NCBI GenBank assembly: GCA_021795215.1
Contig: JAJYPS010000004.1
Coordinates: 1 to 49,973, forward strand
Direction of reading: 5' to 3'
Source of the DNA: Actinomycetes bacterium
Lineage (GTDB): Bacteria > Actinomycetota > Acidimicrobiia > Acidimicrobiales > JAKAOS01
DNA: 49,973 nucleotides
Position numbers and translations under genes: made by a program. A model generated the notes under the pieces. The model was not told the DNA's origin, made no database searches, and saw nothing but the letters and a program-made list of their open reading frames with translations. Positions 5,534 to 18,411 of the stretch are shown here, in pieces. The stretch's first letter is position 1. Each line of letters starts with the position of its first letter.

Positions 5534-7750
5534 ATGAGACCGACGGCACCGGAGGAGGAGCGGCTTCGTTCGGCCCGCACGCCGCCAGGCGTTCCTTTCG
5601 GCGACACGACGACGTGCCCCTACTGCTCGCTTCAATGCGGGATGTCGCTCCGCACGGAGAACTCGGGGTTCCCGTCGGAGTCGGTCGAGGCCAAGCCGGC
5701 CGGCCAGGGCGGCCTCTGCCGCAAGGGATGGACATCGGGTCAACTGCTCTCGCATTCCGACCGACTCCTGAGCCCGATGGTGAGGACCCGCAAAGGCGGT
5801 GCGCTGGTGCCCGCCAGCTGGTCCCTCGCGCTCGACCGCATCGCAGAGGCGGTGGGTGACGTCCAAGATCGGCACGGACCGGATGCGGTCGGGGTCTTCG
5901 GCGGCGGTGGACTGACCAACGAGAAGGCCTATCAGCTGGGCAAGTTCGCCAGGGTGGTCCTCCGCACCCCGAACGTGGACTACAACGGTCGTTTCTGCAT
6001 GTCGTCGGCAGCAGTAGCGTGCAACTCCGCTTTCGGGGTGGACAGGGGGCTGCCCTTCCCGCTTTCGGACGTGTCGATGGCCGACGTCGTCATCCTTGCC
6101 GGTGCCAACCCGGCAGCGACGATGCCTCCGGCCATGCGCTTCTTCACCGCCCTGATCGAAAAGGGCGGAACACTGGTAGTGATCGATCCTCGTCGCACCG
6201 CGACGGCGAAGATGGCGTCGGTCCACCTGCAACCGGTTCCCGGAACCGACTTGGCCCTCGCGAACGCGATGCTGAACATCGCCATACGAGCAGACTGGAT
6301 CGACCGCGAGTTCGTCCGGCAACGGACCTCGGGCTTCGACGAAGTGCGCGAAGCGGTCGCTTCCTACTGGCCGGACAGGATCGAGAGGCTGACCGGGGTG
6401 CCGGTGAACGCCATGACCGACGTGGTGCGAGCCTTCGCTACGGCCGAGCACGCCATGATCCTCACGGCCAGGGGCGTCGAGCAGCACACGAAAGGCACCG
6501 ACACGGTGGCCGCCTTCATCAATCTGGCCTTGGCGACAGGTCATGCGGGGAAGTTGTGGTCCGGCTTCGGAACGCTGACCGGTCAGGGCAACGGCCAAGG
6601 TGGCCGGGAGCACGGGCTGAAGGCAGACCAACTGCCCGGCTATCGCAGCATCGCCGATCCCGCCGCGAGGCGACATGTCGCCGAGGTGTGGGGCGTCGAC
6701 CCCGACACCATCCCTGGCCCCGGCACGTCGGCCTACGAGATGCTCAGCTCTTGCGGGGAGGAGGGTGGGGTCAGGGCTCTGCTCGTGATGGGTTCGAACC
6801 CGGTCGTCTCCGCCCCCGATGCCGCTGCCGTGGAGTCCAGGCTCAGCCGGCTGCAGTTCCTGGCCGTCGCCGACCCGTTCATGTCCGACACCGCTCGACT
6901 CGCGGACGTCGTGCTCCCGGTGGCTCAGTGGGCCGAAGAGGACGGGACGACGACCAACCTCGAGGGACGAGTACTGCGACGCAGGCGACTGAGGTCCGCA
7001 CCGACCTCGGTCCGGACAGACCTCGAGGTCCTCTCCGACCTTGCGGCTCGCCTGGGTCACCGCAGCGGATTCTCGCCCGTGGCGCAGCATGTGTTCGACG
7101 AGCTCGCTCGGGCAAGTGCCGGAGGGCGGGCCGACTACTCGGGAATCACCTACGTCGCCTTGGACCGAGCGTCGGCAACCCACTGGCCGGCCCCTAGAGA
7201 GAGACCGACCGGTACTCCGAGGCTGTTCCTGGACAGCTTCTCCACCACCAGCGGGCGAGCCCGTTTTTCTCCGGTCTTCCACCGGGCGGTGGCCGACCCC
7301 CCCGATGAGAGCTTCCCGATATACCTCACCACCGGCCGCCTCATCTTTCAATACCAAAGTGGTACGCAGACGAGCCTCATAGACGATTTGAGGAGTGACA
7401 GACAAGAGCCGAGTGTGGAGATGCACCCGTTTCTTGCGCGCCAACTCGATATCAACGACGGCGATATGGTCGACGTTACGACACCTCGCGGCACTACCAC
7501 GGCGTGGGCTCACTGCACATCCGACATCCGTATCGACACCGTCTTCCTTCCGTTCCACTTCCCTGCATCCGGAAGAGCCAATCTTGTGACCAATCCAGAA
7601 CTCGATCCCAGGTCGAAGATGCCGGAGTTCAAGGTGTGCGCAGCCTCTATCCGGAAGCACGACCCTCATCGGTGCAACGTCACCAATAGGACCAATGGGC
7701 ACGTCACCTATAGACAGTCACCAATAGAACTGAAAGAGGAGATCTGGTGA
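5534..7750 (+). CDS. Assimilatory nitrate reductase catalytic subunit (molybdopterin oxidoreductase, NasA/NasC-like)
   Basis: TCPYCSLQCG...LCRKG [4Fe-4S] motif, DYNGRFCMSSA, LTGQGNGQGGREHG, C-terminal PEFKVCA. Confidence 0.92.
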   Translation: MRPTAPEEERLRSARTPPGVPFGDTTTCPYCSLQCGMSLRTENSGFPSESVEAKPAGQGGLCRKGWTSGQLLSHSDRLLSPMVRTRKGGALVPASWSLALDRIAEAVGDVQDRHGPDAVGVFGGGGLTNEKAYQLGKFARVVLRTPNVDYNGRFCMSSAAVACNSAFGVDRGLPFPLSDVSMADVVILAGANPAATMPPAMRFFTALIEKGGTLVVIDPRRTATAKMASVHLQPVPGTDLALANAMLNIAIRADWIDREFVRQRTSGFDEVREAVASYWPDRIERLTGVPVNAMTDVVRAFATAEHAMILTARGVEQHTKGTDTVAAFINLALATGHAGKLWSGFGTLTGQGNGQGGREHGLKADQLPGYRSIADPAARRHVAEVWGVDPDTIPGPGTSAYEMLSSCGEEGGVRALLVMGSNPVVSAPDAAAVESRLSRLQFLAVADPFMSDTARLADVVLPVAQWAEEDGTTTNLEGRVLRRRRLRSAPTSVRTDLEVLSDLAARLGHRSGFSPVAQHVFDELARASAGGRADYSGITYVALDRASATHWPAPRERPTGTPRLFLDSFSTTSGRARFSPVFHRAVADPPDESFPIYLTTGRLIFQYQSGTQTSLIDDLRSDRQEPSVEMHPFLARQLDINDGDMVDVTTPRGTTTAWAHCTSDIRIDTVFLPFHFPASGRANLVTNPELDPRSKMPEFKVCAASIRKHDPHRCNVTNRTNGHVTYRQSPIELKEEIW

Positions 7751-8101
7751 ATGGAAGCTGAACCTCGGTTCCGACAGGGTGTATTTCCATATCGCGGGAA
7801 CGGATACGACAAGCCTATGCAGATAGACTCGACCATGTCGTACGTTGTCCCTTCCGGCGCTTATGCACAGCCGGTCTACCTACGTGCGGGTAACTCCGGT
7901 TCTCAGCTCGTGTACCTGTTACTGCTGCTGGACGGTGAGCCACTCCGCTACTTTCCCATCGGCGCATCCTCGGACTCTCATGTGTCCCTCCGAGTGGTCC
8001 AGAACATTCAGCCGGACAGCCATTTGGAGTTGATGCTTGCTGCTCCCGAGGACGCTGAGGGCACGATCGTCGTGGACTTCGGGCTCATGGAGATACCATG
8101 A
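7751..8101 (+). CDS. Hypothetical 116-aa beta-rich protein in the nas-nir operon
   Basis: Starts immediately after the nitrate reductase stop and overlaps nirB by ATGA; GAGGAG RBS. Confidence 0.8.
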   Translation: MEAEPRFRQGVFPYRGNGYDKPMQIDSTMSYVVPSGAYAQPVYLRAGNSGSQLVYLLLLLDGEPLRYFPIGASSDSHVSLRVVQNIQPDSHLELMLAAPEDAEGTIVVDFGLMEIP

Positions 8102-10554
8102 GCGCTACTGGAGTGGCCCAGCGGGAACGCTTGGTAGTCGTGGGCAATGGTATGGCGGGCGTCCGTACAGTGGAGGAGATCCTAAGACGTGTCGGCCCCG
8201 AGCACTACGACATCACGATCTTCGGGGACGAGCCCTACCCCAACTATAACCGGATCCTTCTCTCCAACGTTTTGGCCGGGACGGAGGACGTTGACAATGT
8301 CTTCATCAATAGTATTGATTGGTACGATAGAAACGGTGTAACACTTCGCGTACGATCTCGGGTCTGCTCGGTCGACCGTTGGGCCAAGAAGGTGTTCACG
8401 TGCGACGGGGACAGTGCCCCTTACGACAAGCTCATCCTCGCCACAGGGAGCAGGCCCTACTTCCCACCGCTTGCAGGAATCCGCAGTAGCGATGGCAAGC
8501 TCCTCGGCGGAGTGTTCGGCTTCCGGACGCTGGACGACTGCAGCGCAATGCTCGACAGTGTCCGGCACTCGTCACGGGCAGTCGTCATAGGTGGAGGTCT
8601 CCTCGGCCTGGAGGCCGCCCGAGCCATGCTGGCCAGGGGGCTCGACGTGGACCTGGTGCACGGGAGCGGGGATCTGATGAACCAGCAACTGGACAGCGAA
8701 GCTGCCGGCATCCTTCGTTCGACTGTGCAGCAGCTCGGGATCACAGTGCACTTGAAGACGAAGACCGTGGCGGTGATCGGCACTTCGAGGGTGAAGGGCG
8801 TCATCTTCGACGACGGGTCGAACCTGGCGGCCGACATGGTGATCGTCGCCACGGGAGTCACTCCCAACGTGGAGCTGGCCGTGGAAGCCGGCCTGACGGT
8901 CCAGAGGGCGGTGGTCACGGACGACAGGATGCGGTCCCTGGACGATCACTCCATCTACGCCGTCGGAGAGTGCGCAGAGCACAGGGGGCAGGTGTACGGG
9001 TTGGTCGCTCCACTCTGGGAGCAGGCAGGAACCCTGGCTGACAACCTCACTGCCCATAACCCGAAATCGGTCTACCTGGGATCCAAGATCGCCACGAAGC
9101 TGAAGGTCATGGGCGTGGAGCTCGCGACAATGGGCCTCAAGTCCGCAACCCACGAAGACGACGAGGTGGTCAAGTTCCTCGAACCGAAACGAGGAATCTA
9201 CAAGAACGTAGTGCTGCGAGACAGCAAGGTCGTCGGAGCCACTCTCCTTGGCGACCTTTCCAAGGTGGCATTCCTGCTGCAGGCGTTCGATCAGGGCAGG
9301 CCGATATCCGAAGAGAGACACTCGCTGCTCTTCGACATCGGCTCACCGGACACACAGAGAAGCGTGGCCGAACTGCCGGACGACACCCAGATCTGCAACT
9401 GCAACGGAGTGGACAAGGCTACCCTGATCGCTGCAGTCAAGGCGGGTAACCGCTCCGTCAAGGCCGCCATGTCCGCCACCCGCGCCGGTACGGGCTGCGG
9501 CTCGTGCAGAACGCTCGTATCCGACATCGTCGAGCTCGCCTGCGGAGGGACCGTCGAAGAGGACCCCTCTTCCGGCTACTACGTTCCGGCCATCCCGCTC
9601 AGCAAACCGGAACTTGTCCAGCGCATTCGCGGGATGCAGCTGAGATCGGTGTCGTCCGTCTTCGACGCACTGTCTCCCGGCGTCGAAGACGCTCTCAGCA
9701 AACCGGGTGTCGCTTCACTTCTGCGCACTCTCTGGGGCGGTGAGTACGAAGACCAGCGGGATGCCCGGTTCGTCAACGACCGGGTGCACGGGAACATCCA
9801 GAAGGACGGCACTTTCTCCGTGGTCCCGAGCATGCCCGGCGGAGTCACTTCCGCTGCCCAGCTGCGCCGGATCGCCGACGCGGCGGATAAGTACGGCGTC
9901 GCAATGGTCAAGGTCACCGGCGGCCAGCGAATAGATCTCCTTGGTGTCAAGAAGCAGGATCTTCCTGGCATATGGGCGGATCTCGACATGGAGTCAGGCT
10001 TTGCGTACGGAAAGACCTTTCGCACGTGCAAGACCTGCGTCGGGACCGAGTTCTGTAGATATGGCCTTGGCGACTCGACTGAGTTGGGAGTAAGCATAGA
10101 CCAACGCTTCAAGGGTCTGGAAAGTCCCGCAAAGATGAAATTGTCGGTATCAGGATGTCCTCGCAACTGTGCTGAATCTCTGGTGAAGGACGTCGGAGTG
10201 GTCGCCATCGAGGGTGGCCGCTGGGAGGTGTACGTCGGCGGCTCGGCGGGCTCGCACATCCGCCGAGGAGAGCTCCTCTCGGTCGTCGGCTCCAAGGACG
10301 ACGTCCTCAGGCTCGTCGGTCGCTTCGTCCAGTACTACCGCTTGAACGGCAAGTACCTGGAGCGGCCGTACGCCTTTGTCGAGCGAGAAGGCATTGAGCG
10401 GCTGCGTTCGGTATTGGTGGACGATTCGGAAGGACTCTGTGATGTCCTCGAGGCCGAGATCCAAGCCTCGGTCGATGCCTACTCGGATCCTTGGAGCGAG
10501 GGCGACTTCCCTGTCACACCCAACCAATTCGTCCGGAGGATACCGGTCAAATGA
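8098..10554 (+). CDS. nirB: NAD(P)H-dependent nitrite reductase large subunit
   Basis: VVVGNGMAG FAD site, GGGLLGLEAA, CNCNGV...GCGSC [2Fe-2S], CVGTEFC and SGCPRNC siroheme/[4Fe-4S]. Confidence 0.95.
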   Translation: MSATGVAQRERLVVVGNGMAGVRTVEEILRRVGPEHYDITIFGDEPYPNYNRILLSNVLAGTEDVDNVFINSIDWYDRNGVTLRVRSRVCSVDRWAKKVFTCDGDSAPYDKLILATGSRPYFPPLAGIRSSDGKLLGGVFGFRTLDDCSAMLDSVRHSSRAVVIGGGLLGLEAARAMLARGLDVDLVHGSGDLMNQQLDSEAAGILRSTVQQLGITVHLKTKTVAVIGTSRVKGVIFDDGSNLAADMVIVATGVTPNVELAVEAGLTVQRAVVTDDRMRSLDDHSIYAVGECAEHRGQVYGLVAPLWEQAGTLADNLTAHNPKSVYLGSKIATKLKVMGVELATMGLKSATHEDDEVVKFLEPKRGIYKNVVLRDSKVVGATLLGDLSKVAFLLQAFDQGRPISEERHSLLFDIGSPDTQRSVAELPDDTQICNCNGVDKATLIAAVKAGNRSVKAAMSATRAGTGCGSCRTLVSDIVELACGGTVEEDPSSGYYVPAIPLSKPELVQRIRGMQLRSVSSVFDALSPGVEDALSKPGVASLLRTLWGGEYEDQRDARFVNDRVHGNIQKDGTFSVVPSMPGGVTSAAQLRRIADAADKYGVAMVKVTGGQRIDLLGVKKQDLPGIWADLDMESGFAYGKTFRTCKTCVGTEFCRYGLGDSTELGVSIDQRFKGLESPAKMKLSVSGCPRNCAESLVKDVGVVAIEGGRWEVYVGGSAGSHIRRGELLSVVGSKDDVLRLVGRFVQYYRLNGKYLERPYAFVEREGIERLRSVLVDDSEGLCDVLEAEIQASVDAYSDPWSEGDFPVTPNQFVRRIPVK

Positions 10555-10910
10555 GGCTGGTCGACGAGACGTGCATCGGAGCGCTGGAGCGGATACCCGT
10601 CGGCGAAGGTCGCGAGGTCGACCTGGGTGGCCTGCTGGTAGCGGTGTTCAGAACCAGGTCCGGCTCTGTGCATGCGCTCGAGGCACGCTGCCCTCACCGG
10701 GGAGGGCCACTGGCTGACGGGTTGGTCGACTCGACGAGCGTCGTCTGTCCTCTCCACGGTTGGAGGTTCCGCCTGCAGGACGGTGCGGCCCTGGTGGGCG
10801 ACTCCCCGACAAGGAGCTTCGCCGTCCGAGAAGGAGACGACGGGAACATCTACGTCCGCTGCCCGGCACCGGCCAGCGATGGACTCGGACCCGCCGAGTC
10901 CCCAGACTAA
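10551..10910 (+). CDS. nirD: Nitrite reductase small subunit (Rieske)
   Basis: CPHRGGPL and CPLHGWRF Rieske motifs; ATGA overlap with nirB. Confidence 0.9.
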   Translation: MRLVDETCIGALERIPVGEGREVDLGGLLVAVFRTRSGSVHALEARCPHRGGPLADGLVDSTSVVCPLHGWRFRLQDGAALVGDSPTRSFAVREGDDGNIYVRCPAPASDGLGPAESPD

Positions 10911-10953: not shown

Positions 10954-11736
10954 CTACGCGACGGCGGAGGAGGGGGACGCGCCGCTCTCGGGACCGACCG
11001 ACGCGGACAGCTGCGGGCGGCGGTCCGAAAAGGAGAGCTGCCGGCTCGCCCCCGCCGTCAGCCATGTGAACAGGCGCGCATGGCGTCCGCCCTCCACGAG
11101 AAGCTCCGGGTGCCACTGCACTCCGATCACCCTCGCCGGGTACACACTTTCGACGGCCTCCACCACCCCGTCGTCCGACCACGCCACTGCGGTCAAGCCG
11201 CTCCCCAACCGATCGATCGCCTGGTGATGGAGGCTGTTCACACCGACCTCGCCCTCCCCCACCACCGAAGCCAGAGTGCTGTCACGCTTCACCGTCACGA
11301 AATGGGCAAACTCCGCATGCCGATCGGCTTGTCGGTGTGCCAGCCGGGAAACCGACGGCAGGTGCTGGATCAACGTACCTCCGGCCACCACGTTCAACAG
11401 CTGCAGCCCCCTGCACACAGCCAGCACTGGCAGCTGCGCTTCCAGGGCCTCGGTCAGGACCGCCATCTCCCACGCATCTCGCTCCGGCTCCGGCGTCTCG
11501 GCCTCCTCCGCGGGCGCCTCCCCGTAGTGACGCGCTTCGATGTCCCTCCCGCCAGCCAGCAGCAGACCGTCCACCTTGCGGATCATCGCTCCGGCCATTT
11601 CCGGTCTCAGCACGGGCAGCACCACCGGCAGGCCTCCTGCCGAGGCGACGGCCCGCACGTAACCGCTCTCTATGCCGTCCAGCCGACGTCCCTCTTCAGT
11701 CGCAGACCGTCCACTGACTCCGATCAAGGGCTGCAT
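10954..11736 (-). CDS. Gamma-glutamyl-gamma-aminobutyrate hydrolase family (peptidase C26)
   Basis: PLIGVS, GLLLAGGRDI, LAVCRGLQLLNV, VNSLHHQAI and GVQWHPE motifs. Confidence 0.92.
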   Translation of the reverse strand: MQPLIGVSGRSATEEGRRLDGIESGYVRAVASAGGLPVVLPVLRPEMAGAMIRKVDGLLLAGGRDIEARHYGEAPAEEAETPEPERDAWEMAVLTEALEAQLPVLAVCRGLQLLNVVAGGTLIQHLPSVSRLAHRQADRHAEFAHFVTVKRDSTLASVVGEGEVGVNSLHHQAIDRLGSGLTAVAWSDDGVVEAVESVYPARVIGVQWHPELLVEGGRHARLFTWLTAGASRQLSFSDRRPQLSASVGPESGASPSSAVA

Positions 11737-11927
11737 GCCACCAGCATACGGCAGCCCTCGCGCACCGCTTTCAGCCCTGGGTCCCCCTGCGTGTCGACTA
11801 TGTGAACACATCCGTGCAACGGCATCCCGAGGAGCCCCCCCTGGCAGACTGGAACCTACCGGACGAGACCACAACTCGCCGGACGGTGCATCTGAGCGAT
11901 CGGGGCATCCGAGCGAGAGGAACGCAC

Positions 11928-13067
11928 TTGGTACTGACGCTGGGTGTAGAAGAGGAATTTCTCATCGCCGACGTCACGACGGGCGGCCTGGTACCGCAGT
12001 CCCACCGGCTCGTTCCGAGGTACTACAAGAAGAGGGGAATGCCCGAGGGCTTCACTCGAGAGCTGAACCTCTGTCAGATCGAGGTGGCCACTCCGGTGTG
12101 CACCTCCAGCGAACAGCTCCGGAGCCATCTCCGGGCATCGAGGAGAGACCTGCAGCTGGCCGCGGAGTCGGTCGGGCTGACACCGTTGCCCGTCGGGAGC
12201 CATCCCTTCTCGTCCTGGCGAAACCAGCAGGTGGACCGTTCGGACCCGCGTTACGGCAGGATGGAGGACGACTTCCAGCAGGTGGCCAGGGAGCAGGTCA
12301 TCTGCGGATGCCATGTGCACGTCGGAATACCCGATCCGGACCTTCGGATCGCGGTCATGACCCGGGCGCGGCCGTGGCTTCCAGTACTGGTTGCGATGAC
12401 CGCCAACTCACCATTTTGGGAGGGGCTGGATACCGGATACGACTCCTACCGGATCGAAGTCTGGAGGAAATGGCCCACGTCAGGTATGCCACCTGCTCTG
12501 TCGTCCATGGCCGACTACGTGGACATCCTTTCTCGGCTGAAGCTCGTGGGCGCCGCCGCCGATGCCAGCTATATCTACTGGCATATCAGGCCCTCGTCTC
12601 GCTTCGAGACCCTGGAGTTCCGGGCAACCGACACCTGCCTTACGGTGGACGATACGGTGATGCTGGGAATCTTGGTCCGCGCCCTCGTGTCCACCTGCGT
12701 CGACGAGATCGCCAGCGATGCGCCCGCTGCACCCTGGAGGCGAGACACCCTGGAGGCTGCCATGTGGCGCGCAGCCCGGTTCGGCCTGTCCGGCGAGTTG
12801 GCCGATCCTCTCACCTCCGAGCTTCGCCCCGCACGAGAAGTGGTCCAGATGCTGGTCGCCCACGTCGGCAAAGCCTTGCAGAGGGACGGGGAGCACGCAG
12901 GGCTGGTCGCAGGGGTTGACAGGTTACTGGCCACTGGAAACGGCGCCACTCGGCAGCGACGTGCGATGGAATCGGGGTCTTCGGTGGTCGACGCGATCGG
13001 CGCCATGGCCTTCGGCCCCTCAGAGCTGAACGGTCTCAGGCGCCCCGATATGGCTGGTCACCCATGA
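11928..13067 (+). CDS. Carboxylate-amine ligase (glutamate-cysteine ligase GCS2/YbdK family)
   Basis: TLGVEEEF, CGCHVHVG, ANSPFW, YWHIRPS...TLEFR; GAGAGG RBS before the TTG. Confidence 0.92.
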   Translation: MVLTLGVEEEFLIADVTTGGLVPQSHRLVPRYYKKRGMPEGFTRELNLCQIEVATPVCTSSEQLRSHLRASRRDLQLAAESVGLTPLPVGSHPFSSWRNQQVDRSDPRYGRMEDDFQQVAREQVICGCHVHVGIPDPDLRIAVMTRARPWLPVLVAMTANSPFWEGLDTGYDSYRIEVWRKWPTSGMPPALSSMADYVDILSRLKLVGAAADASYIYWHIRPSSRFETLEFRATDTCLTVDDTVMLGILVRALVSTCVDEIASDAPAAPWRRDTLEAAMWRAARFGLSGELADPLTSELRPAREVVQMLVAHVGKALQRDGEHAGLVAGVDRLLATGNGATRQRRAMESGSSVVDAIGAMAFGPSELNGLRRPDMAGHP

Positions 13068-14978
13068 CACCACCGCCCGTACGAAAGCGACCCGGTTGAT
13101 GGTCTTCTCCAGCTCGTGCCCCTCGTCGGGAAAGAGCAGGTACTCGTGCTCGACACCGTTTCTCTCGAGCGACTCGACGACCTGCTGCGCTTCGCACACC
13201 GGGACGTTGGTGTCCTCCGCCCCGTGCACGACGAGTAGCGGAGCCTCGAGCATCCCGATCCTCCGAATAGGCGACAAGTCCTCCAGCAGTTCCGCATCGC
13301 GTCGCGGATCGCCGTACTTGCCGACCGCCGCGTCGGCGATCCACGGTTCCGTGCCGGCGAAGAACGTGGCGAAGTTCGCCATCCCGCAGACGTCCACTCC
13401 CACCGAGAACAGCCTCGGGTACCGGACCAGCACCGCTAGGGTCAGGTAGCCGCCGTACGATCGCCCCATGCATCCCATCCGGCCACCCACGGACAGGCCG
13501 CTCGCAAGGAGATGGGCGGCGCAACTGGCCACGTCGTCGATAGCGCAGTAGCGCCCGGCGAGGTCGTCGGATTCTCGGAAACTGCGGCCGAAGCCCGAGG
13601 AGCCTCGGACGTTGGGAGCGAACACAGCGACGTTCTCCGAGATCAGCGACTGGAAGAGGGAGTTGTAGACGGGTCTCTCCTGGGACTCCGGACCCCCGTG
13701 AAGATGGATCACGGTGGTCCAGGGAGGTTCGACGGGAGGCCGGTAGAGCCATCCCGTCAGCTCGGTCCCGTCGAAGGAAGCCAGAGTGACCAGCTCGGGG
13801 GGCACCAGTCGGGCGGGATCGACGCTCCGGACGCTGGCACCCCTGGACGCCAGAAGAGAGCCACTGCCGGGGCTGCTCAACGGAACCGAATGGACCAGCG
13901 CACCGTCGACGGACCACACTCCCCGAGGGTCGGACCAACTCTCCGCCGTGACCAGCAGCGACCCCCCGGCGGAGAACCGGCAGTCCAGCACCACGTCCCT
14001 CGGTAGCTCCGGGGCCACATTGTGCGCTCCGCTCGCCACGTCCAGCACGCTCACCCGGCTCTGGCCGCCCTTCACGTTCCACAACAGCGCCAGCCTGGTC
14101 CGCCCGGGATCGGGCACGACGTCTTCGATGCCAGCTTCTATTCCGGCTGCCACCTCCTCCACGAGCACCGAAACGCCGGGCGATGAGGCGAACATGCCTG
14201 CAAGCGTCTCCTCATGCCTGAGGAGCTCTTCGTCGCGCCGGGGCTCCTCGGCCAGGTTCTCCAGATCGACCGCGACCAGCGCCGCCATCTCGCGGCCCAC
14301 GTCCGTGCAGGCGAACACCGTCCGGCCATCCGGTGACAGGCAGCCCCTCTCCGTAGAGCCGGCACCGCCCAGCAACCAGCTAACGGTGCATTCGGCGACG
14401 TTGACCACGCCCAGCTGCCGTCGGCCCCGGCGCCCACCGCGGAGCAGTGCGACCGTGCCGTCGACGCTCATGTCCAACAGTGCGATCAGCGGGAGCTCGG
14501 CGACGAGTTGGCGGTCGCCGTCTTCGGGGTCCACCGCGAAAGCCCGAGTCGTCCAACGTGATGCCTGCGACGTCACGACCGTCTCGGTCGTCAACAACCT
14601 GCCGTCGGCCGACCAGCCACCCCACGGCCCTGCCCCGACCGCCGCCGTCCCCCCCGGCCCTCCGCCGACGACACGCAGATCCGTGCCGTCCGGCCGGAAC
14701 GTCCACACCTGCTCCCGGGAGCCGTGCTCCGCTGCCGTGACACAGGCCAGCCACGATCCCCCGGGCGACCAACTCACCGCCTTGACACCGCTGAGCCGGT
14801 CCGCAAGGGGACCCCTGCACGTGCGTCCGTCGAACATCCACACCTGAGCCGATCCGGCTCTGTCCGACACGAAGGCGACTGCCGATCCGTCCGGCGCCGG
14901 CGCCGGTGACCAACTGCCGTAGACGTCCTCAGGGACCGGGAGCCCGGACCGCCCACTCGGGGGATCGTCCGGACCCAC
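13020..14978 (-). CDS. S9 prolyl oligopeptidase family peptidase
   Basis: Beta-propeller repeats, HGGPE, GRSYGG nucleophile, HGAEDTNV and DEGHEL. Confidence 0.92.
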   Translation of the reverse strand: MGPDDPPSGRSGLPVPEDVYGSWSPAPAPDGSAVAFVSDRAGSAQVWMFDGRTCRGPLADRLSGVKAVSWSPGGSWLACVTAAEHGSREQVWTFRPDGTDLRVVGGGPGGTAAVGAGPWGGWSADGRLLTTETVVTSQASRWTTRAFAVDPEDGDRQLVAELPLIALLDMSVDGTVALLRGGRRGRRQLGVVNVAECTVSWLLGGAGSTERGCLSPDGRTVFACTDVGREMAALVAVDLENLAEEPRRDEELLRHEETLAGMFASSPGVSVLVEEVAAGIEAGIEDVVPDPGRTRLALLWNVKGGQSRVSVLDVASGAHNVAPELPRDVVLDCRFSAGGSLLVTAESWSDPRGVWSVDGALVHSVPLSSPGSGSLLASRGASVRSVDPARLVPPELVTLASFDGTELTGWLYRPPVEPPWTTVIHLHGGPESQERPVYNSLFQSLISENVAVFAPNVRGSSGFGRSFRESDDLAGRYCAIDDVASCAAHLLASGLSVGGRMGCMGRSYGGYLTLAVLVRYPRLFSVGVDVCGMANFATFFAGTEPWIADAAVGKYGDPRRDAELLEDLSPIRRIGMLEAPLLVVHGAEDTNVPVCEAQQVVESLERNGVEHEYLLFPDEGHELEKTINRVAFVRAVVSWVTSHIGAPETVQL

Positions 14979-16757
14979 TCAGATCCCCATGCGCTGGAGC
15001 CACATCTCCAGAAGGCCCACCTGCCACAGGACGTTCCCCCCGATGGGTGTCCGGCGAGCATTGGGATCGGCCAGCAGCTGGTCGATCGCGTCGGAGCGGA
15101 ACAGCCGGCGCTCGCGGGCAGCGGGCGCCTGGAGCACCTCGCCAACCAGCTCCAGCATCCGCCCGCCCAGGTGGCGGATACCCGGAACCGGAAAGTACCC
15201 CTTGGGCCGGTCGATCACGGCGTCCGGGACCAGCTTCCGGCTGGCGGACTTCAGCACACCCTTGCCACCGTCTGCCAGCTTCAGTCGAGGAGGGCATCGC
15301 GCCGCCATCTCCACCAGCTCGTGGTCCAGAAACGGCACCCTCGCCTCGAGTCCCCAAGCCATCGTCATGTTGTCTACCCGCTTCACCGGATCGTCCACCA
15401 ACATGATCTGCGTATCCAGACGCAGTGCTGCGTCGAGGGCCGTCTCCGCCCCCGGAGCGCCGAAGTGGCGCTCGACGAACGCCCTGCTGACATCCTCCTC
15501 GACCAGCCACTCGGGCGAGACCAGGTCAGCCATTGCGGCGTGGGACCGGTCGAAAAAGGCCCTCGCATAGGCGTCCACCGCTTGGGCCCGGTCGACGTGG
15601 GCAAGCGGCGGGTACCAGCTGTACCCCGCGAACACCTCGTCTGCTCCCTGACCGGACTGCACCACCGTCATCTCCTGGGACACCTCCTGGGAGAGCAGGT
15701 AGAAGGCCACGCAGTCGTGGCTCACCATCGGCTCGCTCATCGCGCGTACCGCAGACTCCACCGCAGGAAGGAGCCGCGTGTCGCGAATGGCGAATCTGTG
15801 ATGGTCGGTGTCGAACTGCCGCGCCACCAGGTCGGAGTACTCGAACTCGTGCCCTGCCTCTCCCCCGGCAGCCTCGAAGCCGATGCTGAACGTCGAGAGG
15901 CCCTTCTGGCCCGATTCGGCTAGAAGGGCGACGATCAGGCTCGAGTCCAGACCGCCGGACAGGAGCACCCCCACAGGCACGTCCGCCACCATCCGGCGCT
16001 TCACGGCCGCCCGCAGGGCCTCGAGCACCTGCTCCTGCCACTCCCCGTCCGGCAGCTCGGCTCCCTCGTGCCGGGTGAAGGACGGTTCCCAGTAGACCGA
16101 CTCGGAGCGGCGACCGTCCAGCTCCAGAACTCGCACGGTGGCTGGGGGCAGCTTGCGTACCCCGGCGAGGATCGTCCGGGGGGCGGGCACCACCGAGTGC
16201 CACGACATGTAGTGATGAAGGGCTATCGGGTCGACCGTGGTGTCGACTCCCCCGGCTGCGACCAGAGCAGGGAGCGTCGAGGCGAAGCGGATCTTGCCCG
16301 GCTGCTCCGACAGGTAGAGCGGTTTGATGCCGAGCCGGTCGCGGGCCATCACCGTCCGTCCGGTGCGGTGCTCGTGGAGCACGAAGGCGAACATGCCGTT
16401 GAACCGCTCCACGCAACGGGGGCCCCACCGGTGGTACGCCTTGAGGATCACTTCCGTGTCGGACGTGGAGTGGAAGTCGTAGCCCGAGGCCTCCAGCTCT
16501 CGGCGCAGCTGGACATGGTTGTAGATGCAGCCGTTGAACACCAGCGACAGACCCAGCTCGGCGTCCACCATGGGCTGCGAGCCGTTGGGCGACAGATCGA
16601 TCACCTCCAGCCTGTGGTGCAGCATGGCCATCGGTCCGGACGCCCATTCTCCCGACGAGTCGGGACCGCGATCGGCCAACATGGGCGACATCCTCGCGAC
16701 GGCGGCGGCATCGGCCCGCTCTCCGTCGGTTCGTAGCTCCCCACCGAATCCGCACAT
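14979..16757 (-). CDS. N-acetylglutaminylglutamine amidotransferase family (asparagine synthetase-like)
   Basis: N-terminal MCG Ntn cysteine, RGPD, FNGCIYN, LLSGGLDSS, EPMVSHDCVAFYLLS, LVDDPVKRVDNMTMAWGLEARVPFLD. Confidence 0.9.
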   Translation of the reverse strand: MCGFGGELRTDGERADAAAVARMSPMLADRGPDSSGEWASGPMAMLHHRLEVIDLSPNGSQPMVDAELGLSLVFNGCIYNHVQLRRELEASGYDFHSTSDTEVILKAYHRWGPRCVERFNGMFAFVLHEHRTGRTVMARDRLGIKPLYLSEQPGKIRFASTLPALVAAGGVDTTVDPIALHHYMSWHSVVPAPRTILAGVRKLPPATVRVLELDGRRSESVYWEPSFTRHEGAELPDGEWQEQVLEALRAAVKRRMVADVPVGVLLSGGLDSSLIVALLAESGQKGLSTFSIGFEAAGGEAGHEFEYSDLVARQFDTDHHRFAIRDTRLLPAVESAVRAMSEPMVSHDCVAFYLLSQEVSQEMTVVQSGQGADEVFAGYSWYPPLAHVDRAQAVDAYARAFFDRSHAAMADLVSPEWLVEEDVSRAFVERHFGAPGAETALDAALRLDTQIMLVDDPVKRVDNMTMAWGLEARVPFLDHELVEMAARCPPRLKLADGGKGVLKSASRKLVPDAVIDRPKGYFPVPGIRHLGGRMLELVGEVLQAPAARERRLFRSDAIDQLLADPNARRTPIGGNVLWQVGLLEMWLQRMGI

Positions 16758-16776
16758 GACGAAGTCCCTTTCTCGC

Positions 16777-18327
16777 CTACGACCGCCGCCCGCCGGAGGA
16801 GCCGCAGACAAGCCAGGTGTCCTTGGAACCTCCGCCGCGAGAGGAGTTGACGATCATGCTGCCCTCGGGCGCCACCCTGGTCAGCGCAGCCGGCGCCACG
16901 GCGGCTACGTCCGAGACGAGCACGAAGGCCCGCAGGTCCACGTGACGCGCCTCGAGACCCCGCTCCGACATGTTCGGGTGGGTCGACAGCTGCACTATCT
17001 CCTGCGCTATCCACGAGGCGGGGTGTGCGAGGATCTGACCGCGCACGGCGTCCAGCTCCTCTTCCGACGCCATGGACCCCACCACGACTCCACTCCCTCC
17101 ATAGCCGTCCACAGGCTTGAGCACCAGTTCCCCCAGGCGAGCGAGGACGTGCCGGCGGTGGTCCTCCTGCCTGCAGAGATACGTCGGGACGGTCCCGAGT
17201 ATCGGCTTCTCGCCCAAGTAGTACTGGATCATGGCCGGCACGTAGCTGTAGACCGCCTTGTCGTCCGCCACGCCGTTGCCCAGCGCATTGGCGACCGCAA
17301 CGCGTCCTGCTCTCGCGGCCGCCACCAGCCTCGGGCCGAGCGGAAGGCCGTCCGCTCCCGCAGCACCCGACAGCTCCGACTCCGACATCCGTAGGTAGAT
17401 GACGTCCACCGGCAGCCGCGGTGCCCCTTGCCGGAGCTGGTAGACACAGTCCACCTCCACCAGCAGCTCCCGCGCCAAGACGATGTCCACGTCCATCTCC
17501 GACGCGAGCATGGAGTGCTCGAACCAGGCAGAGCCGCCTGGACCCTCGCTCAGCAACACGACTCGTGCCTCACCGGGAACCCGGGACGGAGCGGACGCGC
17601 CGAGCGCGGACCGGAGCATCGCCGCCGAGCGGGACGCGTCACAGAGCCCCCGTGGCCGAGGCAGCTCGGGCATCACCGCGTCGATCATCCTTCGGTTGTG
17701 GATCGCGTACGCCAGTCCCGACGGGACCCGCACGTTGTCCTCCAGCACCTGCCAGGTCCCACCGGCATCCCGCACCAGGTCCATCCCGCAGACCTGCGCC
17801 CGGTGGGGCTGCCCTCGAAAAGCGGATCCCACGAGGCTGTACCCCGGAACTTCCGCGACCCAGCGGGGCAGCGCGCCGTCTCGGATGGCAGCCTGCTCGC
17901 CGTACACGTCGCACAGCAGCGCGTCGAGCGCCCGAGCACGCTGCTCGAGGCCACGACTCAGAGTGGACCACTCCGCCTCCGCAACCACCCGGGGAATCGG
18001 GTCCACCGGAAAGGTACGAGGAGCCGTGTCTCCGGTGACACGGAACTCGACTCCATGTGACCGCTGATAGCTCTCCGCCGCCAGGCGGCGCCGCGCCAGC
18101 GTCCCCGGCTCGAGGCTGTCCAGCGCCTGTACGACCTCCAGGTACGGAGCGGTCACCGTCCCGTCCTGCACCACCTCGTCACTCGAAGATCGATAGGCGT
18201 CGAAAAGCGACGGCGGGGGGCTTCCCAAGCCACTTCCGTGAGGCACCGTGCCGCCATGGCTCCCAGGACCGGTCAGGACGCCACTGCTCGCCACGGCTGA
18301 ACTCGGTGAAACGTTCTCGCTGTTCAA
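16777..18327 (-). CDS. Circularly permuted type 2 ATP-grasp protein
   Basis: DPIPRV, VLEDNVRVPSGLAY, ANALGNGVADDK, LKPVDGYGG, NSSRGGGSKDTW; start uncertain. Confidence 0.92.
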   Translation of the reverse strand: MNSENVSPSSAVASSGVLTGPGSHGGTVPHGSGLGSPPPSLFDAYRSSSDEVVQDGTVTAPYLEVVQALDSLEPGTLARRRLAAESYQRSHGVEFRVTGDTAPRTFPVDPIPRVVAEAEWSTLSRGLEQRARALDALLCDVYGEQAAIRDGALPRWVAEVPGYSLVGSAFRGQPHRAQVCGMDLVRDAGGTWQVLEDNVRVPSGLAYAIHNRRMIDAVMPELPRPRGLCDASRSAAMLRSALGASAPSRVPGEARVVLLSEGPGGSAWFEHSMLASEMDVDIVLARELLVEVDCVYQLRQGAPRLPVDVIYLRMSESELSGAAGADGLPLGPRLVAAARAGRVAVANALGNGVADDKAVYSYVPAMIQYYLGEKPILGTVPTYLCRQEDHRRHVLARLGELVLKPVDGYGGSGVVVGSMASEEELDAVRGQILAHPASWIAQEIVQLSTHPNMSERGLEARHVDLRAFVLVSDVAAVAPAALTRVAPEGSMIVNSSRGGGSKDTWLVCGSSGGRRS

Positions 18328-18368: not shown

Positions 18369-18411
18369 ACGCTACCCAGGGAGTGTTCCGGCAACGTTTC
18401 GCGGATGTCAA
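18369..18411 (-). promoter_or_regulatory. Putative GlnR-box promoter of the ATP-grasp/amidotransferase/S9 operon
   Basis: Minus strand TTGAC-n6-GAAAC-n6-GGAAC-n10-TAGCGT. Confidence 0.6.

Follow-up and report, generated by a model that had tools for sequence, protein, structure and literature searches.

Five neighbouring genes in a 49,973-nucleotide stretch of an Acidimicrobiales genome (contig JAJYPS010000004.1; the whole stretch is here called the window) encode a GCS2-type carboxylate-amine ligase, a circularly permuted ATP-grasp ligase (CP-ATP-grasp), an AsnO-type amidotransferase, an S9 peptidase and a C26 gamma-glutamyl hydrolase. We find it reasonably probable that the five form one working unit, a GNAT-less relative of the three-gene ('trio') pathway for N-acetylglutaminylglutamine amide (NAGGN), assembled as a patchwork of two cassettes. 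According to the relevant parts of PMC8146288 and PMC5563000, both citing Sagot et al. 2010, the trio consists of asnO, ngg and an M42 peptidase gene (TIGR03104, TIGR03103 and TIGR03106) and is found in Sinorhizobium meliloti and Pseudomonas aeruginosa. The original prediction for the window had described three amide-forming enzymes and two hydrolases directly after nirBD, which together would build, amidate and recycle a Glu/Gln-rich peptide or protein tag. The enzyme assignments agree with Pfam and NCBIfam scans and with the catalytic motifs, and the AsnO homologue links the cluster with NAGGN-type chemistry. The proposed functional connection of the five genes also gains support, as each family is found alongside the others in further genomes, in arrangements that vary. 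The idea of a unique five-gene invention has to be given up: the locus is pieced together from two cassettes that both recur elsewhere.

The first of these, here called class B, is a widespread actinobacterial gene set in which a fusion of GCS2 and CP-ATP-grasp (named 'carboxylate--amine ligase/circularly permuted type 2 ATP-grasp protein') is accompanied by AsnO and S9. An alignment-based scan with the CP-ATP-grasp of the window, covering one genome per species, gave at least 600 stretches, 581 of which encode a relative, and the best 80 loci were kept. GCS2 lies directly upstream of CP-ATP-grasp in 77 of the 80, the three misses being contig ends. AsnO is present in 72 and S9 in 62, all four parts occur together in 60, and C26 occurs in none. 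The carriers are mainly Actinomycetota (Micromonospora, Actinoplanes, Pseudonocardia, Mycobacterium, Streptosporangium, Microlunatus and others), and a few are metagenome-assembled genomes (MAGs) of Myxococcota or Pseudomonadota. The linkage is equally visible in the best database homologues of the CP-ATP-grasp, where PF04107 and PF14403 are found together in 108 out of 120.

CP-ATP-grasp, AsnO and S9 of the window are collinear on one strand and follow the class B gene order. The closest homologues of the CP-ATP-grasp are three stand-alone metagenomic proteins of ~510 aa (92, 70 and 67% identical), beyond which the best matches are ~850-890-aa GCS2~CP-ATP-grasp fusions; a metagenome scan for stand-alone relatives found none above 54% identity. 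The window protein and its three stand-alone relatives nest within a clade of GCS2-fused or GCS2-adjacent proteins (clade support 100; inner branches 88-91). Unlike in class B, no GCS2 is fused to the CP-ATP-grasp of the window or located directly upstream of it, and its position in the GCS2-linked clade suggests that a fused GCS2 domain was probably lost secondarily. The AsnO falls into the class B AsnO clade next to Kineosporia (support 98-99), separate from the AsnO (class A) of canonical Ngg clusters, and the AsnO clades are sisters of the AsnO from bona fide NAGGN clusters. The S9 peptidase groups with class B peptidases, namely those of Kineosporia and of genome G031 discussed below (support 99). 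No match to the CP-ATP-grasp at E <= 1e-115 was obtained when 400 further genomes of the order were searched (215 genera in total), and the operon consequently looks imported. Taken together, CP-ATP-grasp-AsnO-S9 appears to be an imported class B copy that has lost its fused GCS2 domain. The original prediction had made co-occurrence in other genomes its own test: the families do co-occur, and the exact arrangement does not, the CP-ATP-grasp operon being absent from all 400 other genomes of the order.

We found no further conserved family (GNAT, transporter, regulator or precursor peptide) around the 80 class B loci, 13 loci without S9 or AsnO, and 10 loci of the second cassette described below. 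One apparent family, present at 31 class B loci, proved to be an antisense shadow open reading frame (ORF). Two variations within class B were seen in passing. In Cryptosporangium a second AsnO, 62% identical to that of the window, is located ~2 kb past the class B cassette on the opposite strand (L015:16898-18763), and in two Micromonospora genomes (G041 and G114) the fusion is broken into two frames that adjoin or overlap, which reflects a gene split or a frameshift.

The second cassette, defined in this analysis as type II and typical of the order to which the window belongs, consists of GCS2 divergent from an Ngg-like ATP-grasp that lacks the GNAT half, with or without AsnO, plus C26. Copies were scored as GNAT-less when they matched TIGR03103 at positions ~234-545 only, with 270-421 bits. 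Among a sample of 301 genomes of the order, ten carry such a copy and four a full-length Ngg. The 20-kb regions around the ten GNAT-less copies contain GCS2 in 8/10, C26 in 8/10, AsnO in 6/10 and S9 in 1/10. Around the four full-length Ngg genes we found AsnO in all four, GCS2 and C26 in none, and an adjoining M42 peptidase in three. The typical type II layout is GCS2 divergent from ATP-grasp-AsnO-C26; GCS2 diverges from an operon with C26 and/or ATP-grasp in seven of the ten loci, and GCS2, C26 and AsnO share one cassette in three (L234, L238 and L240). A sample of 301 genomes from the phylum held 22 full-length Ngg and a single GNAT-less copy, which sits immediately after a GCS2 gene. Some of the tallies in this analysis include genomes flagged as unpublished (G169, G844, G641, G754 and G668), on which no main conclusion rests.

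The window encodes no GNAT-less Ngg-like ATP-grasp, and its GCS2 belongs to the type II GCS2 clade (support 99). Joining it with the fused GCS2 domains of class B is rejected by the approximately unbiased (AU) test (p 0.0006), and the trees and this test rule out that it is a simple fission product of the fused protein. C26 groups with the type II C26 genes with moderate support (84-86), and its orthology is further supported by a nirD/C26 junction that the window shares with G298, a genome from another family of the order. Three observations from this part of the survey are added for completeness. In G013, the C26/ATP-grasp pair has a trehalose synthase (TreS-like) gene immediately downstream (L218:3-1202), a second compatible-solute gene beside a type II cassette. 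Two relatives of the window GCS2 have additional parts: P0138 (709 aa) combines GCS2 with a RimK-type ATP-grasp, and P0128 (594 aa) shows, besides its GCS2, a weak match to an ACT domain that stays under the threshold.

The relation between the two cassettes is most evident from the locus of G298 (L238), which reads GCS2 (-), ATP-grasp, AsnO and C26 (+), followed by nirD-nirB-nasA (-). The nas-nir/C26 junction is common to both loci, with proteins 49-61% identical. Compared with this layout, the window is without the ATP-grasp-AsnO pair between C26 and GCS2, and has CP-ATP-grasp-AsnO-S9 in addition, beyond GCS2. The shared junction suggests that the window holds that same locus, in which ATP-grasp and AsnO have been displaced by the imported operon. 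GCS2 and C26 would thus represent the remnant of a type II cassette, located beside nasA-nirBD just as in G298. The reciprocal combination is found in a third family, in genomes G031 and G228, where a GCS2 and an S9 of class B type come after the type II Ngg-like ATP-grasp and the type II AsnO. This GCS2 and this S9 fall next to Kineosporia in the trees, and placing the GCS2 in type II is rejected by the AU test (p 4e-6). By these comparisons the two types of ATP-grasp, and likewise the two GCS2 subfamilies, replace each other in nature. With both mosaics in existence, such reciprocal exchanges make sense only if the ATP-grasp types, and the GCS2 subfamilies, serve equivalent steps in a single kind of pathway.

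All five genes are intact in the window, with boundaries that agree with those first assigned (Table 1). Judged from gene coordinates and strands they form three transcription units and not one operon. In the minus-strand operon a 19-nt gap separates CP-ATP-grasp from AsnO, the stop of which abuts the start of S9. GCS2 converges on S9 with a 48-nt overlap of the 3' ends (13020-13067), and diverges from C26 across 191 bp. Upstream of CP-ATP-grasp lies an MMPL gene, and on the other side the end of nirD is 43 bp from the C26 stop.

Table 1. Features of the five-gene cluster and of the adjoining nitrate genes in the window
Feature	Position	Strand	Evidence
C26 peptidase, class-I GATase-fold gamma-glutamyl hydrolase	10954-11736	-	PF07722, E 1.5e-65
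C26/GCS2 divergent intergenic region, 191 bp, presumed promoters	11737-11927	.	flanking gene coordinates
GCS2/YbdK-type ATP-dependent carboxylate-amine ligase	11928-13067	+	PF04107, E 1e-59; NF010041, 377.5 bits (cut-off 332)
S9 serine peptidase, predicted cytoplasmic, beta-propeller + alpha/beta hydrolase	13020-14978	-	PF00326, E 3.9e-39
AsnO-type (AsnB-like) glutamine-dependent amidotransferase, N-terminal nucleophile (Ntn) Cys + PP-loop synthetase domain	14979-16757	-	TIGR03104, 955.8 bits (cut-off 570.1)
Stand-alone CP_ATPgrasp_2, circularly permuted ATP-grasp ligase (type 2), 516 aa, first gene of operon	16777-18327	-	PF14403, E 9e-118
Nitrate context, probably outside the system: nasA-like, nirB, nirD	5534-10910	+	Pfam
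NasA-like molybdopterin enzyme	5534-7750	+	Pfam
NirB	8098-10554	+	Pfam
Rieske NirD	10491-10910	+	Pfam

The translations retain the expected catalytic motifs: an N-terminal Met-Cys and SGGLDS in AsnO, GRSYGG in S9, CRG and WHPE in C26, and EEE in GCS2. The GCS2 gene begins with a TTG codon at 11928 that is preceded by GAGAGAGGAA, and a 379-aa database call starts at the same codon. Its closest solved relative is YbdK. The first ~40 residues of CP-ATP-grasp are of low complexity, and the true start may accordingly lie further in. No NCBIfam model matched this protein, and its nearest solved chain is 3n6x, a 'putative glutathionylspermidine synthase' (E 2e-96). The best relatives of S9 in the PDB are 5l8s, an 'amino acyl peptidase' (1.3e-39), and acylamino-acid-releasing enzymes. 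C26 resembles gamma-glutamyl amide hydrolases most among the named models, every one of them below its cut-off. It reaches 110.8 bits with the model NF008471 (cut-off 266) of PuuD, the gamma-glutamyl-GABA hydrolase of the Puu pathway, and has no more in common with PuuD than the fold and, in general terms, the hydrolysis of gamma-glutamyl amides.

The usual partners of such enzymes (Ngg, alpha-E and transglutaminase) had been predicted to be missing from the locus, and scans of the window confirmed this, with no match to alpha-E (PF04168) or transglutaminase. The search was extended to the whole genome, an assembly of 2.6 Mb in 152 contigs with an estimated completeness of 92.7%, for which reason absences are given here as 'not found'. 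One GCS2, one AsnO and one C26 gene were found genome-wide. Ngg was not found: the best TIGR03103 match, to the ATP-grasp part only, scores 113.1 bits against a cut-off of 569 and is located on contig C25, where the encoded protein is 29.7% identical to the GNAT-less ATP-grasp of G013. The M42 peptidase of NAGGN clusters was likewise not found (0 TIGR03106 matches at E <= 0.001). Alpha-E is present elsewhere in the genome, on contig C77 (G000; L183:264-3591), in a triad with a transglutaminase-like gene and a paralogous CP-ATP-grasp that is 40-43% identical to that of the window.

Within the order, GNAT and GCS2 replace each other and the hydrolase changes with them (GNAT with M42; GCS2 with C26 or S9), from which we infer that GCS2 acts as the N-capping enzyme. 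In an ATP-dependent reaction it would acylate, and so cap, the amino group of a Gln or Glu residue, as the GNAT half of Ngg does with acetyl-CoA. By family precedent (gamma-Glu-Cys ligation, and YbdK as closest solved relative) the cap would most likely be gamma-glutamyl. The ATP-grasp ligase could then add the next residue by a peptide bond, and AsnO may amidate the terminal carboxylate with glutamine-derived ammonia. For turnover, the C26 gamma-glutamyl hydrolase is predicted to take the cap off, and S9, an acylaminoacyl-type peptidase, to cut the blocked peptide. A small peptide amide, neutral and rich in nitrogen, would be expected as the product, such as gamma-Glu-Gln-Gln-NH2. Its role is most likely that of a compatible solute, by analogy with NAGGN only. 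All of these functional assignments derive from gene context and family membership. Of the two products originally considered, the small peptide of Glu/Gln type, made, amidated and broken down again, is the best reading. The protein tag finds no support: the locus has no gene for alpha-E, transglutaminase or a carrier, and no conserved small ORF occurs at the 80 + 10 related loci.

Several observations weigh against the proposal of a single working unit. The window GCS2 is not an orthologue of the fused domain, and its cooperation with CP-ATP-grasp is deduced from their shared setting; the cap is probably gamma-glutamyl, by family precedent only. The complementarity of GNAT and GCS2 comes from a small number of independent lineages, 8 genera with the GNAT-less copy and 4 with full-length Ngg, among which related genomes are not independent. 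Four type II genomes (G013, G252, G302 and G398) contain no AsnO anywhere; amidation is therefore optional in type II, and the core of that module may serve a purpose by itself. When the closest GCS2 relatives were collected from 401 genomes sampled across the phylum, none of their 29 loci had a C26 within 1.5 kb; with the 80 class B loci also without it, the pairing of GCS2 and C26 is not general. Finally, all trees come from 'quick' searches, and the groups compared in the AU tests were defined with the trees already at hand.

The genus Micromonospora offers a further view of how these gene sets relate to canonical NAGGN clusters. Among 121 genomes, 76 encode a full-length Ngg, 25 the class B fusion, none both and 20 neither, and TIGR03104 proteins are present in 119. 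Ngg is also absent from five of five class B genomes of three genera. The mutual exclusion of Ngg and the fusion in Micromonospora fits functional equivalence, but it may also go back to a single event: the 25 fusion proteins are 90-98% identical to the query and probably form one clade. An in-situ swap between the canonical and the class B cassette can be ruled out in this genus, since the alignment is confined to the AsnO genes and the flanking regions are different. Most of the 121 genomes have a third TIGR03104 paralogue (~900 bits) adjacent or convergent to a stand-alone GCS2. A glutamine synthetase gene sometimes lies between the two (L091-L096 and L100-L102), and no ATP-grasp or peptidase is near, which leaves a minimal pair of GCS2 and AsnO.

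That the product is NAGGN itself, with GCS2 and/or CP-ATP-grasp fully replacing Ngg and acetylation taking place elsewhere or by ATP-dependent ligation of acetate, is an explanation to which we give little credence. The AsnO of the window, at 955.8 vs 570.1 bits, far exceeds the cut-off of the NAGGN amidotransferase equivalog, and the distribution of Ngg and the fusion in Micromonospora and in the five class B genomes from three genera would be expected under it. No acetyltransferase is conserved near either cassette, however, and the AsnO proteins of classes A and B form separate clades. Moreover, the exclusion may reflect one event in closely similar fusion proteins. PMC8146288 reports NAGGN as a major metabolite of Micromonospora provocatoris, and was considered as proof that class B makes NAGGN. 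This use of it was dropped: the paper names no loci, and the producer may simply carry a canonical Ngg like 76 of its 121 congeners, so no inference is drawn from it. A glutathione-like thiol is similarly improbable. Here gamma-Glu-Cys would be formed by GCS2 and extended by a third residue through the ATP-grasp, in the manner of GshB; AsnO would amidate the product to a compound of the glutathione-amide type, and C26 and S9 would recycle it. The GCS2 family models indeed name no activity other than glutamate-cysteine ligation (NF010041 is matched above its cut-off), fusion of GCS2 to a RimK-type ATP-grasp exists (P0138), and glutathione amide occurs in purple sulfur bacteria. The Ngg-like ATP-grasp of type II also matches the ATP-grasp half of the bifunctional GshA/GshB model NF002688, but at 136.6 bits against a cut-off of 425 it is much nearer to the ATP-grasp half of Ngg (365-421 bits) than to GshB models. 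Furthermore, no thiol-related genes (reductase, peroxidase or transferase) are conserved near any cassette, and the AsnO clades are sister to those of bona fide NAGGN clusters.

The five genes could also be two unrelated modules placed side by side by chance: GCS2 and C26 for a Puu-like gamma-glutamylation and de-glutamylation of amines, and CP-ATP-grasp-AsnO-S9 for a product of its own that does not need GCS2. The three separate transcription units, the imported look of the operon, the absence of C26 from class B and the four genomes with a GCS2/C26/ATP-grasp module lacking any AsnO are all in agreement with this. We nevertheless regard it as unlikely, given that the CP-ATP-grasp of class B nearly always has its own GCS2, and the window copy, having lost it, adjoins the only GCS2 of the genome. 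In addition, GCS2 and C26 of type II share a cassette with AsnO in three loci, and the reciprocal hybrid of G031 and G228 shows parts of both cassettes working together. Least probable, and in our opinion very improbable, is the modification of a ribosomal peptide, the tagging of a protein or a lasso-peptide-like maturation by an AsnB-type cyclase and an S9 isopeptidase. CP-ATP-grasps are classically associated with alpha-E and transglutaminase genes, and two weak matches, AsnO to a lasso cyclase model (192.5 bits, sub-threshold against 525) and S9 to the Atxe2 isopeptidase model (38.2 vs 400 bits), point in this direction. The locus itself is without those partners, the canonical triad with its own ATP-grasp being on C77; the gaps between the operon genes, of 0-19 nt, and the 80 + 10 related loci reveal no conserved extra ORF family; and AsnO retains the N-terminal Cys of a glutamine amidotransferase. 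A single unit that builds, amidates and degrades a capped Glu/Gln peptide remains our preferred interpretation.

The original prediction had also proposed a nitrogen store or an osmolyte as possible purposes. Nitrate genes beside such cassettes are found in the window, in G298 (L238:6531-11758), where nasA-nirB-nirD converge on the type II C26 gene, and in a Pseudonocardiales MAG, where a class B cassette has nirB-nirD immediately upstream in the same orientation (L039:640-3446). A fourth locus (L047) has a short NasA-like fragment, and the other loci searched have none. The neighbourhood in G298 probably shares ancestry with that of the window. A link of the cluster with nitrogen supply is possible, with weak support. 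Matches to an actinobacterial GlnR-box pattern (GTNAC-N6-GNAAC, <=1 mismatch) are not enriched in the window (26 vs 27.8 expected). Two overlapping one-mismatch matches (TTGAC-N6-GAAAC-N6-GGAAC) at 18385-18411 on the minus strand, 58-84 nt upstream of the CP-ATP-grasp start, are an instance of this pattern, which occurs at chance level window-wide. A search of sequencing runs found no RNA run containing the window stretch, and one DNA run, from a mine drainage metagenome that is possibly the source sample, which contains 0.95 of its words.

To our knowledge NAGGN is among the few known dipeptide osmoprotectants, and only one biosynthetic route to it, through Ngg and AsnO, has been described. 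The present comparisons suggest that this amidotransferase is also the core of at least two other gene sets: class B in many Actinomycetota (581 relatives among at least 600 candidate stretches), and type II typical of the order of the window. Annotation pipelines name AsnO 'N-acetylglutaminylglutamine amidotransferase' even where the NAGGN synthetase is missing, and the 'NAGGN clusters' mined from actinomycete genomes may therefore mix products. The mosaic and its reciprocal counterpart give concrete enzyme pairings, as well as a hypothesis for the role of the orphan GCS2/YbdK family outside ergothioneine and pupylation-type chemistry. More tentatively, and as a possibility we would not rate highly, GCS2 ligases may be a natural, ATP-driven substitute for the GNAT half of Ngg, with actinobacteria making a hitherto undetected family of glutaminyl peptide amides with a gamma-glutamyl in place of an N-acetyl cap, as compatible solutes or nitrogen-rich reserves, from exchangeable parts. 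If this were true, each cap would have a matching uncapping hydrolase (GNAT with M42, GCS2 with C26 or S9). The exchangeable parts would be the Ngg-type or circularly permuted ATP-grasp, the two GCS2 subfamilies and an optional amidation by AsnO, and the window would represent the displacement of one ligase by another at the same locus, caught in the act.

Part of this has precedents. Iyer et al. 2009 reportedly noted a neighbourhood of CP-ATP-grasp, a GCS2-like ligase, an alpha/beta-hydrolase peptidase and a GAT-II amidohydrolase, and the Pfam text for PF14403 is said to list the same, so that a cluster of this kind has already been predicted. Apart from what Iyer et al. 2009 may describe, we found no account of a GCS2-containing NAGGN-like cluster in the literature, and none of the type II cassette. 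As far as we have seen, the type II cassette, the co-variation of GNAT/GCS2 with M42/C26 and the two reciprocal mosaics are new. In Frankia, the relevant section of PMC5563000 describes AsnO together with a 'putative Ngg' of <15% identity and a peptidase gene between them, which may be the same kind of variant. The passages of two Micromonospora papers that touch on the subject (PMC11537254 and PMC10513789) mention generic 'NAGGN clusters' only; neither PMC4694148 (M. smegmatis SigF regulon) nor PMC10513789 (ABAGG) has a bearing on the cluster.

Compared with the known systems, the cluster has most of its logic in common with the NAGGN trio. In both, peptide building in a step with two functions is followed by amidation and accompanied by a dedicated peptidase; the AsnO of the window falls under the same equivalog model, TIGR03104, and the type II ATP-grasp has a homologue in the corresponding half of Ngg. 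Unlike the trio, the window would build its peptide with a GCS2 ligase and a circularly permuted ATP-grasp, has S9 and C26 as hydrolases and an AsnO from a separate clade, and belongs to a genome in which Ngg, its GNAT domain and the M42 peptidase were not found. The bifunctional glutathione synthetase GshF/GshAB is similar in that a GCS-type ligase, coupled or fused to an ATP-grasp ligase, serves to form two amide bonds in succession. It differs in that the GCS of the window is GCS2/YbdK and not GshA, the ATP-grasp is circularly permuted and an amidotransferase is added; the type II ATP-grasp, too, falls far under the NF002688 cut-off. With the CP-ATP-grasp/alpha-E/transglutaminase system, for which a role in peptide modification is predicted, the cluster shares the ATP-grasp families PF14403 and PF04174, whereas those genes are separate, on C77. 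The closest likeness is to the two cassettes themselves. CP-ATP-grasp, AsnO and S9 are orthologues of the class B genes in the same order and on the same strand, but the fused GCS2 is missing, a GCS2 of the other subfamily is convergent downstream, and C26 is present. To type II the window is linked by a GCS2 of the same clade, the divergent layout and the nasA-nirBD neighbour seen in G298, with the difference that CP-ATP-grasp, a class B AsnO and S9 stand in for the Ngg-like ATP-grasp and the type II AsnO.

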